The position numbers and the translations under genes are program-made. The notes under the pieces were generated by a model. That model was given only the letters and a program-made list of their open reading frames with translations, did not search any database and had not been told where the DNA came from. A stretch of 20,000 bases of DNA from an uncultured virus (IMG/VR IMGVR_UViG_3300049913_000012) (Duplodnaviria; Heunggongvirae; Uroviricota; Caudoviricetes): the IMG/VR virus record IMGVR_UViG_3300049913_000012, one strand, 5' to 3'. Positions 304 to 8,843 of the stretch are shown here, piece by piece (the stretch's first letter is position 1; every line of letters begins with the position of its first letter).

Positions 304-1248
304 TTACCTCCTATGTGGTACATTGTAGATATGAAGTAGCTTTAGTTCGTAGAGTTGGATTCCTTCCCATTCTCCATTATCACCAGAATAACAAGTAGCA
401 ATGTATTTATAAATGAGAGAATCACTATCACTAAAGTACTTCCCATAAGGTTGGTAGGTACTACTTTTTATGGAATAGATATACATCTTTCCATTAGTAG
501 TCACAAGAATTATATCCCCGACCTTGAGCTCAAGCCAGCCTGTTTCCCACATTCTATGCGCCCATATCGTACCTCGATATGCTGCTGCTCCATGCAGCGT
601 GGCTGGTAGGAGCAGGGAACCACCAGGAGCGTTTACGCCAGCATAAAGGCTGTATGAGTAGCCATCCATATCTACTAGCCCCACAAGCTCACCTGGGTAT
701 TCATTTTGGTATGCTCCAAAAGCATCTGCTGGTACTGGAGGAAACGGAGTCTCGGTAGGGACAGGAGGTGTGGTTGAAGTAGGCGTTGGTACAGCGGTTG
801 ACGTACTAGTAGCAGTTGGAGTAGGTGTACTCGGTGGTTGTGTGGCAGTACTAGTAGGTGTAGGCGAGGGATCAACCTCAGGTGTTGGTGTCGGTGATGG
901 GTCTACTTCTGGAGTTGGCGTAGCCGTTGGCGTATTCGTGGGAATAGTCGTTGGACTAGCAGTTGGAGTGTCCGTAGGAGTACTCGTTGCTGTCTCCGTT
1001 GCTGTCGCTGTTGGTGTATCTGTAGGAATGTTTGTAGGCGTTTCAGTCGGCGTTGGAGTAGCAGTTGATGTCTCCGTTGGAGTATTTGTTGGTGTGTCAG
1101 TTGGAGTGGCACTTGGAACCTCCGTATTCGTTGGAGTAGGAGTCTCAGTAGGACAATTAGGATCAATCGGACTTGCTCTCGTAGTACCAGCAGCAATAAG
1201 GGCTAAAGCAATAAGAAGTACAACAGCAGCAATATATACAGTTTTCAT
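304..1248 (-). CDS. Secreted/membrane-anchored Pro/Thr-rich protein with C-terminal sortase-like domain
   Basis: N-terminal signal/TM ([21 protein letters not shown]) and a ~145-aa PT-repeat linker. C-terminal motifs WAHR...LKVGDIILV...YIYSI...IATCY match the sortase His and T-C motifs. Confidence 0.65.
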
Positions 1249-4357: not shown

Positions 4358-4636
4358 CTATATCTGTAACCCATTCATTAGGGTTTTGATGTGCTTGAAG
4401 ATGGAATTGATACGGATTGATTGTTCCTGTATCGTTCCACCTATCTGAGTTACCTGTTGCTTGAGCTCTGATGTAGTTGGCGTATTGGGTGATACCGCAA
4501 TAGCCGAGATCGGAGCAAGTCTTTTCTCTAACTCGTCAACCAACGACATTAGCTCGCTAATGCAGCCTTCTAGATATGATAGCTGCTCAGGTATCTCTCT
4601 ACCTCTTTCTTGTGCTACTCCACCACTAGACATCAT
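4358..4636 (-). CDS. Hypothetical coiled-coil protein
   Basis: 92-aa ORF with heptad-like Leu/Ile spacing and an ATGA overlap with the upstream gene. Confidence 0.7.
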   Translation of the reverse strand: MMSSGGVAQERGREIPEQLSYLEGCISELMSLVDELEKRLAPISAIAVSPNTPTTSELKQQVTQIGGTIQEQSIRINSIFKHIKTLMNGLQI

Positions 4637-5772
4637 ACTATTTCTCCTTTCACCTTATTGTAAATTTCCTGATAGGTGCTCAGGATTTTATCTATATTCT
4701 TGTCTATATCCTGAGCCATAGCAAACTCTAGACCAGAGTCTACTTTGTCTTTTGCTTCCTGATAGTGATCCATGATTGAGTAGATGGCACTCTTCCAATC
4801 ATAGGAGCTATTCTTGACCCTTGTACCATAAGCTGCTAGTTCTTCAGTAGGTGCAGCCTTTGTGCCAATCCAGGGAATGCCCATGAGGGTAAACTCTAAG
4901 GTCTTTATCCACGATCTACGATTATCGTATACGCCAGATAGCGGAATGAGTCCTAAGTCCCACTCTGCCATGACACTAGGCCACTTCTGAGGCTCGACCC
5001 AATCAATAGGGAAGACCTTGGTAGGGATGTTGATAGCTTCAGGAATACGTCTATCGCCACCAGCTACCCTGATAATAGCATTCTTGCGCTTGGCACATAC
5101 ATCATGTAGAGCGTCAATGAGGCCACTCTTAGTCCAGCTATCCATGTGTGTCCAGCTACCACCCCACCCAATAACAAACTTAGTGTCCCTACTATCATTT
5201 GTTCTTTGCTTTAGTCTCTTGAGAGGTAGATACATCGAGGTAGGGATATAGTTTGGCATGAGAAATAAATTGTTGTTGAAGTCAGACCAGTCCTTTAGGA
5301 TAATAGGAGATGGGCTGGCAACAGCATGCACTAGTTTCATGCCCCACTCTAGTTGCTCTATAGGAGGGTTACTCATTTTTGCACTGCGAAGGTTGCCTTC
5401 CTTATCTTTGGCTTTGATTATGCCTTCATGCCAGAAAGGATAGGTTGCTATTGTCTTTGGCATGAGCTTATAGGCATCGTCTACATCTGCAACAACGATC
5501 TTGCCTAGAGCCATCAATTCTATGAACCGAGGAATAGCAGCAGCCAGGATAAGCCTTTCAACAACCACAATATCAGACCAGTCACAGTACTGCTTGGTGT
5601 TTCCATCACCATTGACAAAGGTATCGAAGGGCAGGGTAAGTGCTCTAGATGCACCACTTCCTGATCCACTGGTGTCTGCTAATAGATTGATCGCCAAGGC
5701 AGGGTTGAGGCAGCGCCATTGTGAAGTATTCCATTCTTTTTCATTGTCTGCATAGACAAATAAGATATTCAT
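4633..5772 (-). CDS. GT-B fold glycosyltransferase (GT4-like)
   Basis: WRCLNPA, IVADVDDAY, PNYI, IGWGGSWTH and WDLGLIPL...YDNRRSWIKTLEF..MGIPWI follow the GT-B C-terminal K..E motif pattern. Confidence 0.85.
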   Translation of the reverse strand: MNILFVYADNEKEWNTSQWRCLNPALAINLLADTSGSGSGASRALTLPFDTFVNGDGNTKQYCDWSDIVVVERLILAAAIPRFIELMALGKIVVADVDDAYKLMPKTIATYPFWHEGIIKAKDKEGNLRSAKMSNPPIEQLEWGMKLVHAVASPSPIILKDWSDFNNNLFLMPNYIPTSMYLPLKRLKQRTNDSRDTKFVIGWGGSWTHMDSWTKSGLIDALHDVCAKRKNAIIRVAGGDRRIPEAINIPTKVFPIDWVEPQKWPSVMAEWDLGLIPLSGVYDNRRSWIKTLEFTLMGIPWIGTKAAPTEELAAYGTRVKNSSYDWKSAIYSIMDHYQEAKDKVDSGLEFAMAQDIDKNIDKILSTYQEIYNKVKGEIV

Positions 5773-6767
5773 TTGAGTACTCCTTCAATAGCTTCTTTCC
5801 ATACCTTAGACATCTTGGTCATTTCTCGTCCTCTAGCAGCATCGTGTCCGTTTCTGGCTATTGTTTTAGCTTCATCAGGGTGGGTAAATAGGTACTCCAA
5901 AGCACCATACCATTCATCACTCTCGTGTCCTACTTCAAAGCCACCTCCAGGCCAGTTAGAATAGACAGGCATTTTGGAGCAGATGTAAGGGATCATCTTA
6001 GCACCAGCATCTACTAGTTTGATGTCTGATTTAGCTTGGTTGAACTCATTATCTAGCAGAGGAGCCAGCATCACATCCCAAAGGGACAACATTGCGGGAT
6101 AAACATCGTAGCTAACCATTGGCACAAATAGCTTCTGCTTCTCTGGGATCCTCTTGAGCATGTTGTAGATTTCTGGGTCGCCAGCAATACACACCATAGC
6201 CTGTGGGTACTCTTTGATAAAACGCATGAGTGGATGCACACACATCTTGAAGTCCTCACGGTGAGTAATCGTACCACCCCATCCTATGATGAAGCGATCT
6301 TTGTAGAGTGAGCGCTTGACTAGCCAGTGGAAATTGTCAGCCGACCAGCCATTAGGAATAACCTTGATGTTCTTGTTGATAGGCAGGAGCCTGTCTCTCA
6401 GGATACTGGTGGCTGTAGTTATTAAGCTAGCTGCATAGATGCAGTTGTCCAGCTTCATTAGGTAGTAAGGATCGCCCTTGCCTACAAATTTGTAGCCTGG
6501 GTGTTTCTCTGGGATAGCATGGAAGTCATCGTCCATATCCACAATTACAGGGATACCTAAGCGCCTATAGGCTGTGATTAGCGAGTCGTGGTGCGGTCTA
6601 CTAAAGACGATGGCGTCATAGCCCATTAGAGGTACAAGAGTGCCTTCACGATATTCCAGTGCAGTGAAATCTACCTCGAAGCCTAGCTTATTGAGGTGAA
6701 ATCCTGGTAACTGGCAACGTACAGCATCGCTAACTGTACCTTCTCCTACAAAGAGAATCTTGGTCAT
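5769..6767 (-). CDS. GT-B fold glycosyltransferase (GT4-like)
   Basis: VRCQLPG, VIVDMDDDF, VIPNG, IGWGGTITHREDF and WDVMLAPLLDNEFNQAKSDIKLVDAGA; paralogous to the adjacent gene. Confidence 0.85.
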   Translation of the reverse strand: MTKILFVGEGTVSDAVRCQLPGFHLNKLGFEVDFTALEYREGTLVPLMGYDAIVFSRPHHDSLITAYRRLGIPVIVDMDDDFHAIPEKHPGYKFVGKGDPYYLMKLDNCIYAASLITTATSILRDRLLPINKNIKVIPNGWSADNFHWLVKRSLYKDRFIIGWGGTITHREDFKMCVHPLMRFIKEYPQAMVCIAGDPEIYNMLKRIPEKQKLFVPMVSYDVYPAMLSLWDVMLAPLLDNEFNQAKSDIKLVDAGAKMIPYICSKMPVYSNWPGGGFEVGHESDEWYGALEYLFTHPDEAKTIARNGHDAARGREMTKMSKVWKEAIEGVLK

Positions 6768-7012
6768 TCAGGCACTTTCCTGTACTTAGTGAATGCTTCT
6801 CCACTTTCCCACTCTGTCATAAGCTGGTTGAAAACACCCATAGTTACATGGGCTGAGCCACCACTATGACCATAGGAAGAGAAGGCTTCCGACATTTTCT
6901 CCACTACTGTGCCGAGTTCACCATCATAGTCGGAGTCGTCATCATACATTCCTAACTCCTTTAGGCGTCTGATGAAGTACTCGTGTCTATTTTCATGCGG
7001 ATTGCTATCCAT
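6764..7012 (-). CDS. Conserved-looking phage hypothetical protein (GHSGGSA motif)
   Basis: ORF track 6764..7069. The likely start is ATG at 7012 (MDSNPHE) behind an AAGGAG RBS, which avoids overlap with the upstream structured RNA. Confidence 0.7.
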   Translation of the reverse strand: MDSNPHENRHEYFIRRLKELGMYDDDSDYDGELGTVVEKMSEAFSSYGHSGGSAHVTMGVFNQLMTEWESGEAFTKYRKVPE

Positions 7013-7040
7013 TGTATTCTCCTTTGTTAGTTTAGTTATG

Positions 7041-7178
7041 CTATGTCGGGGGGAGTGGACTTTCACCACTCTGCCAGCCTAGAGTCTATCTCTTATGAGC
7101 AACTGCCACCCGTAGCCAGTTTCCCTCGGATAAGGTTTGTCGCTTCCAGGCCAGTCACATCCGACCTCCCCGACATAG
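7041..7178 (-). ncRNA. Unidentified structured RNA in the tRNA cluster (closing helix plus T-arm-like hairpin)
   Basis: The ends pair over 11 bp (CTATGTCGGGG/CCCCGACATAG). A GAGTGG-TGAAAGT-CCACTC hairpin sits next to the 3' strand, and there are internal stems TCGGAT/ATCCGA and AACTGGCTAC/GTGGCAGTT. Confidence 0.55.
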
Positions 7179-7206
7179 TACGACTTTGTAAGGTTCAGCA
7201 TTCCAG

Positions 7207-7291
7207 CGGAGAGAGCAGGACTTGAACCTGCATACCTTTTGAGGGGTGAGCTGGTTAGCAACCAGTCGCAATACCATTCTGCCATCTCTCC
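7207..7291 (-). tRNA. tRNA-Ser(GCT)
   Basis: GGAGAGA/TCTCTCC acceptor stem, TGGCAGAATGGTATTGCG D region, CTGG-TTGCTAA-CCAG anticodon arm, long variable arm, GCAGG-TTCAAGT-CCTGC T arm, G discriminator. No encoded CCA. Confidence 0.93.
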
Positions 7292-7294
7292 TAA

Positions 7295-7366
7295 TACCTC
7301 CAGCGGGACTCGAACCCACATCCTGAGTTTAGAAAACTCTCGCTCTATCCCTTGAGCTATAGAGGT
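7295..7366 (-). tRNA. tRNA-Arg(TCT)
   Basis: ACCTCTA/TGGAGGT acceptor stem, GCTC-AAGGGATA-GAGC D arm (A20 Arg identity element), GAGT-TTTCTAA-ACTC anticodon arm, GTGGG-TTCGAGT-CCCGC T arm. No encoded CCA. Confidence 0.93.
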
Positions 7367-7367
7367 A

Positions 7368-7914
7368 ATAGACTTTACTTCGCAACACATCACATTGCCT
7401 GACATCACTCCACTGAACAAAACTGCACTCGATACCATAGATATTACTTTACTCTACTGAGCATAGCACCACTCGACTACACAACACAAAACTAAACAGG
7501 GCTACACATCGCATAACCTTATTCCATAGACCTTACTTTACTCAACTTCGCCAGACATCACACTGCCCAACCTTACTATACTCCACAAGACAATACCTCG
7601 TACCATAGACCTGACTGTACATCACACCACTGTACCCGACCATGCTCCACCCAACATTACCGCATACCATAGGCTTTACTTTACTCCACCTGACTCCACT
7701 ATACATTACTAAACCTGGCTTAACTGGGCCGCATTCCATAGACTGAGCCTTACTCCGCAAAGCCTCACGTCACCAAACAAAACCAAGCTCCGCACTACCT
7801 GATACCATAGACCTTACTTTACTGCGCTAGACATCACTGCACTAGACCAAACTAAACCGAGCCTTACCAAATTCCATAAGCTTTACTTGACCTTGCATTG
7901 CCATACCGCACCCA
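7368..7914 (-). repeat. Array of pentamer-periodic units ([NN-DGY]n separated by CTATGGWAY anchors); candidate guide-RNA array
   Basis: The + strand parses as 96 pentamers RCHNN (95 start with RC, one is ATATT, one has G at position 3). They fall into blocks of 12, 16, 14, 11, 12, 12, 12 and 7. Blocks are separated by RTWCC-ATAR at 7432-7440, 7521-7529, 7600-7608, 7664-7672, 7733-7741, 7802-7810 and 7871-7879. Confidence 0.92.
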
Positions 7915-7920
7915 TCAGCA

Positions 7921-8235
7921 CTAGGCCTTGAGCCTCGGAAGTTTCTTAGCATCCAAAACTTTCACTAATGGTACATCGGGCAAACTCAGTTTGATATATT
8001 GCTCAAGTTGAGCCTTGTCTGTAGCTAACTCACGAGCCATGTTGAAATATACTGCTTCCTGAGCACGTTCAGCTTGCTTTAGGCGTGACCATGTGGATAA
8101 CACCGATGATGCCAGACGAGCAGTGTCGATGTCTGTATCCATCAACTCATCGCCTGGACTTAAGAATACCTTGCGTAGAGCCGATACTGCTGGTTCTACA
8201 AGGACTTCGAGTTTATCGCTGTCTTTCATAATCAT
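7921..8235 (-). CDS. 104-aa alpha-helical hypothetical protein between the RAMP-like gene and the array
   Basis: ATGA overlap with the RAMP-like gene; its stop codon is 6 nt from the first array pentamer. Confidence 0.75.
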   Translation of the reverse strand: MIMKDSDKLEVLVEPAVSALRKVFLSPGDELMDTDIDTARLASSVLSTWSRLKQAERAQEAVYFNMARELATDKAQLEQYIKLSLPDVPLVKVLDAKKLPRLKA

Positions 8236-8843
8236 CCTCCTTTGCTATTCTTGGTGTCGTGCCAGTCGATTACAATGAACCGACCATGTTCAGGACGCCA
8301 TGATCCAATACCAACCAAGATACCAGCTTCTTCAAGAGCAATACGTACTTGCTCTGGACTTCTGCGTGGATCAAGAACATTCAGAGTAAATGATGCAACC
8401 CATCCAGTCCTAAAGGCTGGTCGATAGATCATACACGCTCCACCAGTTTTGGGAGGGCGTTTGCCTGGATGTTCGTGCATATAATCAAATGGCAATTCCC
8501 TTTGTGATGGTATTTCTTTTATGTAATCAGGTGTTGCGGGAGTGATATAGATCAGCCCCTCTACAAACACTGTGGCGATTAGATAAGGAGCAATATTCTT
8601 GCGTCCTTCCTTGAGATTGCCTGCCCTAGCACCCGCAGCCATGACTTGCTTGAACATCCAGCTAGGAATATGAGCCTTGCCATTCTCATCAACAGGACAT
8701 TTCTGGATAGCATCTTCACGCCACACTGAGTCTGGAATCTTGCCTCCACCTATACCACCCTGAAGAGCTAATAATTCTTTAGGGGTCATACGATTGAACA
8801 GTAAATCTGCTGTTCCTTGCAACTTACCTGTTATTTGATACAT
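8232..8843 (-). CDS. Stand-alone RAMP/Cas7-like RNA-binding protein
   Basis: N-terminal strand I.G.L.G..DLLFN, HIPSWMFKQVM..GA (RAMP IP.S..K-like motif), YRPAF..GW..SFTL.V, and a C-terminal Gly-rich loop ALEEAGILVGIGSWRPEHGRF. GAGGTG RBS. Assigned by motif recognition only. Confidence 0.78.
   Translation of the reverse strand: MYQITGKLQGTADLLFNRMTPKELLALQGGIGGGKIPDSVWREDAIQKCPVDENGKAHIPSWMFKQVMAAGARAGNLKEGRKNIAPYLIATVFVEGLIYITPATPDYIKEIPSQRELPFDYMHEHPGKRPPKTGGACMIYRPAFRTGWVASFTLNVLDPRRSPEQVRIALEEAGILVGIGSWRPEHGRFIVIDWHDTKNSKGG

Follow-up and report, generated by a model that had tools for sequence, protein, structure and literature searches.

A minus-strand array of 99 pentamers in an uncultured phage, together with the two genes located upstream of it, very likely constitutes a VIPR system with eight guides. 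VIPR, a CRISPR-related phage gene silencer, was first described in 2026 (10.64898/2026.04.26.720920). The array lies within a stretch of 20,000 nucleotides from a member of the Caudoviricetes, here called the window, and all identified flanking genes as well as both neighboring tRNAs share its strand. The locus comprises the following features, in the direction of reading:

8232 to 8843, minus strand: vipr, 203 aa, single-RRM RAMP (Cas7-like) protein, PHROG 4652, with a match to PDB 36pp
7921 to 8235, minus strand: partner gene in the vap position, 104 aa, all-helical model, between vipr and the array
7367 to 7929, minus strand: putative vrRNA array with eight guides, 99 NN-DGY pentamers, seven internal 9-nt anchors, and a terminal 5-nt element
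7880 to 7929, minus strand: guide U1, 10 pentamers, overlapping the last codons and the stop codon of the partner gene
7811 to 7870, minus strand: guide U2, 12 pentamers
7742 to 7801, minus strand: guide U3, 12 pentamers; candidate target a Walker-B-like motif of DUF3987, in sense, with the skip at codon position 3
7673 to 7732, minus strand: guide U4, 12 pentamers
7609 to 7663, minus strand: guide U5, 11 pentamers; fits best, though not significantly (p = 0.07), the tyrosine-recombinase segment with the catalytic Arg
7530 to 7599, minus strand: guide U6, 14 pentamers; candidate target the tyrosine-recombinase (PF00589) segment that directly follows the catalytic Arg, in sense and in codon frame (p = 0.001)
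7441 to 7520, minus strand: guide U7, 16 pentamers; candidate target a conserved motif of PHROG 6247 ("DNA topoisomerase")
7372 to 7431, minus strand: guide U8, 12 pentamers; between it and the tRNA lies the 5-nt terminal element (7371 to 7367)
7294 to 7366, minus strand: tRNA-Arg(TCT), abutting the array, with its +1 at 7366 (Rfam) or its start at 7367 (ARAGORN)
7206 to 7291, minus strand: tRNA-Ser(GCT), found by ARAGORN and Rfam

Results

The array repeats a pentamer with a fixed GY core

Read on the minus strand, each guide repeats the unit NN-DGY 10 to 16 times, with the consensus YNNNG. An earlier note on this DNA had described the triplet as constant; upon counting all 99 pentamers, we found only its G and its Y to be fixed (98 of 99 each), the first base being A in 41, G in 30, T in 27, and C in 1. 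On recounting, the NN series and the anchors, seven of each, agreed with those given earlier, as did the unit lengths (69, 89, 79, 64, 69, 69, and 69 nt, all 5n+4), while the first block turned out to hold 10 pentamers (7880 to 7929, one of them degenerate) instead of 7. The letters of the NN series were right on the plus strand, but they need to be reverse-complemented because the guides lie on the minus strand. Similarly, all seven anchors are present, but the topmost one reads TTAT and not CTAT. The pair AA is the last NN in six of the eight units and the penultimate one in five of eight, and hence the earlier figure of ~22 to 32 nt of specificity per unit is ~4 nt too high.

The periodicity stands out clearly from the rest of the window. 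Self-identity at a lag of 5 reached its maximum at 7372 (0.51, versus a window mean of 0.26 with an SD of 0.046), and runs of NNxGY did not exceed 6 in 200 Markov-resampled windows, as compared to the 10 to 16 in every array unit. Contigs from two sequencing runs (X7 and X9), neither of which was flagged as a possible source, cross the whole array without a difference, and the array is therefore no assembly artefact. All 23 listed holders of the array sequence were freshwater sediment metagenomes, and no RNA dataset carrying the array was among them.

Vipr keeps the SUSP1 residues that hold G2 and Y3 but not those that read the first triplet base

The vipr gene, with which the earlier note had not connected the array, lies ~300 nt upstream of it. 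Its product had a sole significant match among PDB sequences, the SUSP1 Vipr (36pp_D, phmmer E = 2e-7), and a 27-sequence profile matched that protein over its full length (E = 9e-17). The structural model (pLDDT 84.7) retrieved CRISPR RAMPs with both Foldseek and VIA, the best RAMP fold match having a Z of 12.0 and an rmsd of 3.5 with 134 aligned. According to the text of the SUSP1 structural work, R138, W178, and R179 hold G2 and Y3, while H17 and D177 read G1 (10.64898/2026.04.26.720927). In our alignment, the former three are conserved as R141, W182, and R183, and the latter two are replaced by N17 and S181. As this clade lacks the G1-reading His/Asp pair, the variation at the first triplet base is probably for the most part tolerated variation. 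In SUSP1, GGY-to-AGY was among the changes tested for loss of silencing. The closest relatives (52 to 58% identity) carry Ser at the D177 position but have a G-rich first triplet base, so that replacing Asp by Ser can at best be permissive. We rejected this change as a sufficient cause of the relaxed first base, since it is contradicted by the L011 locus, where Vipr has the Ser and 21 of 22 triplets are nevertheless G-led, and by phage wV8, which has the Asp along with A/T-led triplets. In wV8 (L009:1029-1078 and 2564-2628), His and Asp are both kept, yet two of the four tracts contain several A/T-led triplets. A further peculiarity of the protein is a 14-residue insertion ahead of the thumb (approximately residues 107 to 120), which was modeled with low confidence and which, among the 26 homologs aligned, only P0001 shares.

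Searches of Pfam, PHROG, PDB sequences, and 50,697 phage records returned nothing for the partner gene, and comparing the fold of its model gave no clear match either (best Z 6.9). Of 23 distinct related loci, 16 carry a homolog of it next to vipr, and the protein may have a helper role.

These 23 distinct loci remained from 28 related ones after removing five duplicates (the pairs L001/L017, L002/L019, L007/L028, L004/L024, and L029/L030). IMG/VR contributed eight Vipr relatives, and GTDB held none by the pattern used. A period-5 array lies next to vipr in 22 of the 23 loci; the L013 locus stops 114 nt past vipr. The array is of the NN-xGY type in 20 of 23, and two loci carry other period-5 arrays in place of xGY, namely GAC/NN (L015:143-213) and a GAT-like form (L025:814-884), which indicates that the scaffold triplet varies inside one protein clade. 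Among individual relatives, phage DSL-LC04 (L010, OR003939.1) has GGY-rich arrays and a Vipr homolog that is annotated as a "helix-turn-helix transcriptional regulator", and at L008:4669-4753 two adjacent guide blocks have a run of identical pentamers in common, which suggests a recent duplication inside the array.

The gene neighborhood is viral, with window genes matching DnaB-like, DnaC-like, GH25 endolysin, and Tad3 families. The 21 ORFs scanned in the 20-kb window gave no match to cas genes, and the window contains neither a long tandem repeat nor a repeat-spacer array of the CRISPR type. Just downstream of the tRNAs, a 101-aa ORF (6764 to 7069, minus strand) matched the type I Thoeris inhibitor Tad3 (Pfam PF25185, E = 1.8e-9, passing the cut-off) and is, as judged from its sequence, a putative second counter-defence gene near the VIPR locus. 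Two tandem glycosyltransferase genes (4633 to 6767, minus strand; PHROG 7162) possibly serve DNA or surface modification. Farther away, a 314-aa protein (304 to 1248, minus strand) begins with a signal-like sequence, continues with a long Pro/Thr linker containing tandem repeats, and has a C-terminal domain that has no Pfam match and that, by its look, we take to be sortase-like.

Guide units are staggered by one base, and the array abuts a tRNA

The shared anchor hexamer starts at 7435, 7524, 7603, 7667, 7736, 7805, and 7874, and at all seven junctions the pentamer register slips by one base. Each anchor consists of the closing pentamer in the upstream register and the opening pentamer in the downstream register, with one base common to both, and nothing beyond these 9 nt separates the array units. 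This slip fits the published staggered vrRNA arrays, whose guides overlap by one nucleotide (10.64898/2026.04.26.720920, fig. S18 legend). At the far end of the array, the closing pentamer of the last unit (7371 to 7367) leads directly into the +1 of the tRNA-Arg. RNase P cleaves at the +1 of tRNAs; a cut there would give the last guide an end that corresponds to the middle of an internal anchor. Hence, RNase P probably cuts the 3' end of the last guide at the tRNA-Arg, and, by analogy with the published arrays and with this junction, we infer that the guides are separated at the anchors. The tRNA-Ser is probably part of the array transcript as well. None of the 28 related loci carries a tRNA, many of these loci being short. 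Folding six units gave no shared RNA fold at the anchors, an Rfam scan of the locus returned tRNAs only, and no sigma-70-like promoter was detected between 6900 and 9300.

The anchor had been proposed to be a processing handle, but linkers vary among relatives, which rules out the anchor as a conserved, clade-wide handle. At L022, the register slips by one base at six of six junctions with a different 4-nt linker, and other loci slip by other amounts; thus, register slips recur, while this anchor sequence does not.

Three guides fit conserved gene-family motifs at a one-base skip

For target searches, we adopted the published rule that one base is skipped between NN pairs (10.64898/2026.04.26.720920). 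Exact gapped scans yielded zero matches for U7 and U6 in IMG/VR and zero for U7 in metagenomes, and the GTDB matches to an eight-pair seed of U7 (four) and a nine-pair seed of U6 (seven) were all unrelated on extension. U6 was also absent, at up to three mismatches, from 401 genomes of the phylum of genome G001. Searching the guides of the window and of its relatives against the collected related loci gave nothing above chance, and no self target was present within the 20-kb window. Five phage records showed no prominent sites other than those already known for U3 and U7, and the four integrases in those records matched U6 at only 7 to 15 of 24 positions.

At the level of gene families, at least three guides (U3, U6, and U7) appear, from sequence comparison, to fit conserved motifs at a skip of one base and in the codon frame, the three families having been picked after their motifs had been recognized in the guides. 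We trimmed the last two pairs of U6 and scored it, with 2000 shuffles, on a profile built from the nucleotide sequences of 56 tyrosine-recombinase segments (60 loci, four short ones dropped). Its best site lay at skip 1, in sense and in frame 0, with a p value of ~0.03 over 32 tests (0.001 for the single test), and skips of 0, 2, and 3 gave p = 0.68, 0.54, and 0.28. A cruder test on 24 ORFs reached a z of only 1.6. U5 placed best on the segment that adjoins the U6 site. Guides at L012:1171-1260 and L021:807-876 presumably resemble phage nuclease (VRR-NUC) and integrase motifs; the L021 guide did not reach significance on the integrase profile, and the guides of the relatives hit this profile at skip 1 in 1 of 63 cases, i.e., at chance level.

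A relaxed U7 pattern gave 38 matches, 19 of them in frame in a single family, PHROG 6247 (three of three members scanned). For this guide as for U3, the seeds overlap the scored sites. Outside the seed, the U7 pairs NN2 and NN14 matched 15 and 14 of the 19 members, which are related to each other and not independent, and the best locus reached 25/32. The last two pairs of U7 matched none of the 19 members, and the 3' pairs are therefore probably scaffold or loosely read; the penultimate pair of U3 does fit its family. The best of 33 matches for U3 was 21/24 in a DUF3987 gene, a score that is not significant on its own. Its site is a conserved motif in 150 DUF3987 homologs, where the out-of-seed Q (136/150) and R (99/150) are the consensus residues. 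In six DUF3987 loci, which were retrieved with a peptide overlapping the U3 site, the guide matched 21, 21, 20, 20, 17, and 17 of the 24 positions under skip 1, the two top scores coming from phages, versus 15 to 18 at other skips, thereby reaching the 80% bar of the original description (10.64898/2026.04.26.720920) in four of the six. All four elements scoring 20 to 21 carry a tyrosine integrase, in line with temperate rivals, and the targets probably belong to rival temperate phages or satellites. A search for longer DUF3987 homologs gave none. U1, U2, U4, and U8 fit none of the families tested, and contiguous reading (skip 0) fits none either.

The earlier view of the NN pairs as a spacer-like code thus agrees with both the VIPR rule (10.64898/2026.04.26.720920) and the family-level fits of these guides. 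Its gapped NN-x-NN reading held for a skip of one base, at family level and for three guides, while an exact target appeared nowhere in the scans run; likewise, the proposed comparison with shuffled series separated U6 from its controls on the integrase profile, while the exact scans for U6 and U7 did not yield a target. The absence of an exact target could be taken to mean that the array is a degenerate satellite repeat or a low-complexity spacer devoid of guide function. We consider this scarcely credible, given that G and Y are fixed while NN is free, that the register slips at constant anchors, that linkage to vipr holds across the relatives, and that in-frame motif fits occur at skip 1 only. 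Guides that act on RNA, or that serve as decoys for the Vipr of a rival, would be another reading: the SUSP1 VIPR can form a guide-RNA duplex in vitro, as stated in the text of (10.64898/2026.04.26.720927), and decoy vrRNAs are described in that of (10.64898/2026.10.15.759431). The three decoded guides, however, have mRNA sense and so cannot pair with that mRNA, and an intact vipr gene of its own lies beside the array, which makes this reading very improbable as compared to DNA-directed guides.

Does the first triplet base carry target information?

With G1-reading residues lost in this Vipr, the first triplet base, freed from its protein pocket, might record or pair with the skipped target base, with RNase P freeing the last guide at the tRNA. 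Two versions are conceivable: a pairing version, in which three bases are read per subunit and U covers both pyrimidine codons by wobble, and a relic version, in which GY was inserted after every third target base during guide copying. At split-codon sites of U3, U5, U6, and U7, excluding two that were covered by fewer than three members of the family, the first base gave the family residue at 18 of 26 sites, where 12.3 were expected (p = 0.014). Leaving out the last four pentamers raised this to 17/21 (p = 0.001), a cut that was chosen after seeing the data. A codon-usage test over all eight units gave p = 0.015 in sense and 0.034 for the best of two orientations, and reading NN plus first base as codons produced two stops in 99 (3.8 expected). 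At the L176 locus, the first base equaled the skipped base at 8 of 12 positions (p = 0.009), including the only C of the array and both four-fold Gly sites.

Several results argue against such a link. The split-codon test left eight sites that clearly did not fit, some of them in near-invariant columns, and weakened to p = 0.09 without U7 and to p = 0.08 without U3; restricting it to strongly determined columns gave 12/19 (p = 0.12), and mutual information of the first base gave p = 0.10. At L174, L173, and L175, the first base equaled the skipped base at 5, 6, and 3 of 12 positions (p = 0.35, 0.05, and 0.43). In the relatives, the codon-usage test gave p = 0.94, and 18 stop codons were observed versus 16.4 expected. 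The motifs had originally been noticed by reading the first base, so that the test is biased in favor of the link and partly circular. In addition, the SUSP1 structure, as described in the preprint text, has the skipped base flipped into a pocket (10.64898/2026.04.26.720927). The data hence weakly suggest a link between first base and skipped base, and we regard such a link as unlikely, tolerated variation being the preferred explanation.

Discussion

Our preferred reading of the locus follows the mechanism described for SUSP1. Vipr, the partner gene, the array, and the tRNAs would be expressed as a single minus-strand transcript that gives rise to eight guide RNAs. Vipr subunits would polymerize along each guide, one per pentamer, burying the GY of the triplet and probably D too, and the exposed NN pairs would read double-stranded DNA two bases at a time with one skipped, whereupon the bound complexes would silence transcription. 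The texts of the VIPR papers describe a single subunit for each pentamer, gapped pairing to double-stranded DNA, silencing, and anti-recombinase action (10.64898/2026.04.26.720920; 10.64898/2026.04.26.720927; 10.64898/2026.10.15.759431). The slip at each anchor may stop the filament from entering the next unit and mark the point of guide separation, with RNase P forming the 3' end of the final guide at the tRNA. At least three guides would aim at catalytic motifs of integrase, DUF3987 (primase-associated), and topoisomerase-like genes, the skip falling on the wobble base.

The closest counterpart is the set of VIPR systems with YNNNG repeats and staggered arrays (10.64898/2026.04.26.720920), which lists NNNGG, YNNNG, and NNNNG as alternatives to GGY/NN. 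Both share a phage setting, vipr with one accessory gene, 9 to 16 pentamers, a 1-nt guide overlap, a relaxed first base, and a one-base skip at the wobble position; the published systems lack self targets, and none lies in the 20-kb window here. The partner gene here has no named family, and the text of that paper mentions neither a tRNA next to the array nor target information carried by the first base. With the type II VIPR of SUSP1 (PDB 36pp; 10.64898/2026.04.26.720927; 10.64898/2026.10.15.759431), as presented in the preprint texts, our locus shares full-length Vipr homology, the thumb Arg, the G-loop Trp-Arg, and a guide against the recombinase catalytic segment. It differs by the change of H17/D177 to N/S and by having only 30 of 99 triplets led by G, and in place of a structured 3' tail of ~40 nt it has only 9 nt between its units. 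The type II features, i.e., GGY read by His17/Asp177 and a structured tail, are thus absent here, and the text of (10.64898/2026.10.15.759431) makes no mention of tRNAs, staggering, or processing. Non-canonical VIPR-like clusters with WGT/NN and GAC/NN arrays, as far as their preprint text goes, likewise combine a degenerate first triplet position with a Vipr-like fold beside the array (10.64898/2026.10.21.760802), and GAC/NN recurs in our relative L015. The passages describing these clusters give neither targets nor processing. Class 1 CRISPR-Cas systems share the RAMP fold with thumb and G-loop (the Cas7/Csm3 backbone), but here a repeat-spacer array and cas genes are absent (21 ORFs) and the code is non-contiguous.

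YNNNG repeats, staggered arrays, and degenerate triplets are already published, as the preprint texts show (10.64898/2026.04.26.720920; 10.64898/2026.10.21.760802). The tRNA junction, the DUF3987 and PHROG 6247 targets, and the hint of information in the first base are absent from these texts and are possibly new, although the supplements may hold this clade.

Overall, the locus extends the known VIPR systems by a compact one that has eight guides and belongs to a distant clade. It brings in DUF3987 and PHROG 6247 genes as candidate target classes beyond recombinases, and its tRNA junction provides a base-exact prediction of the cut position in staggered guides. The VIPR preprint texts give no account of how guides are programmed, a question that could be tested on sequences if the link between the first base and the skipped base were real. 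Such a link would mean either that the code comprises three bases or that VIPR guides directly preserve traces of the way in which they are written.
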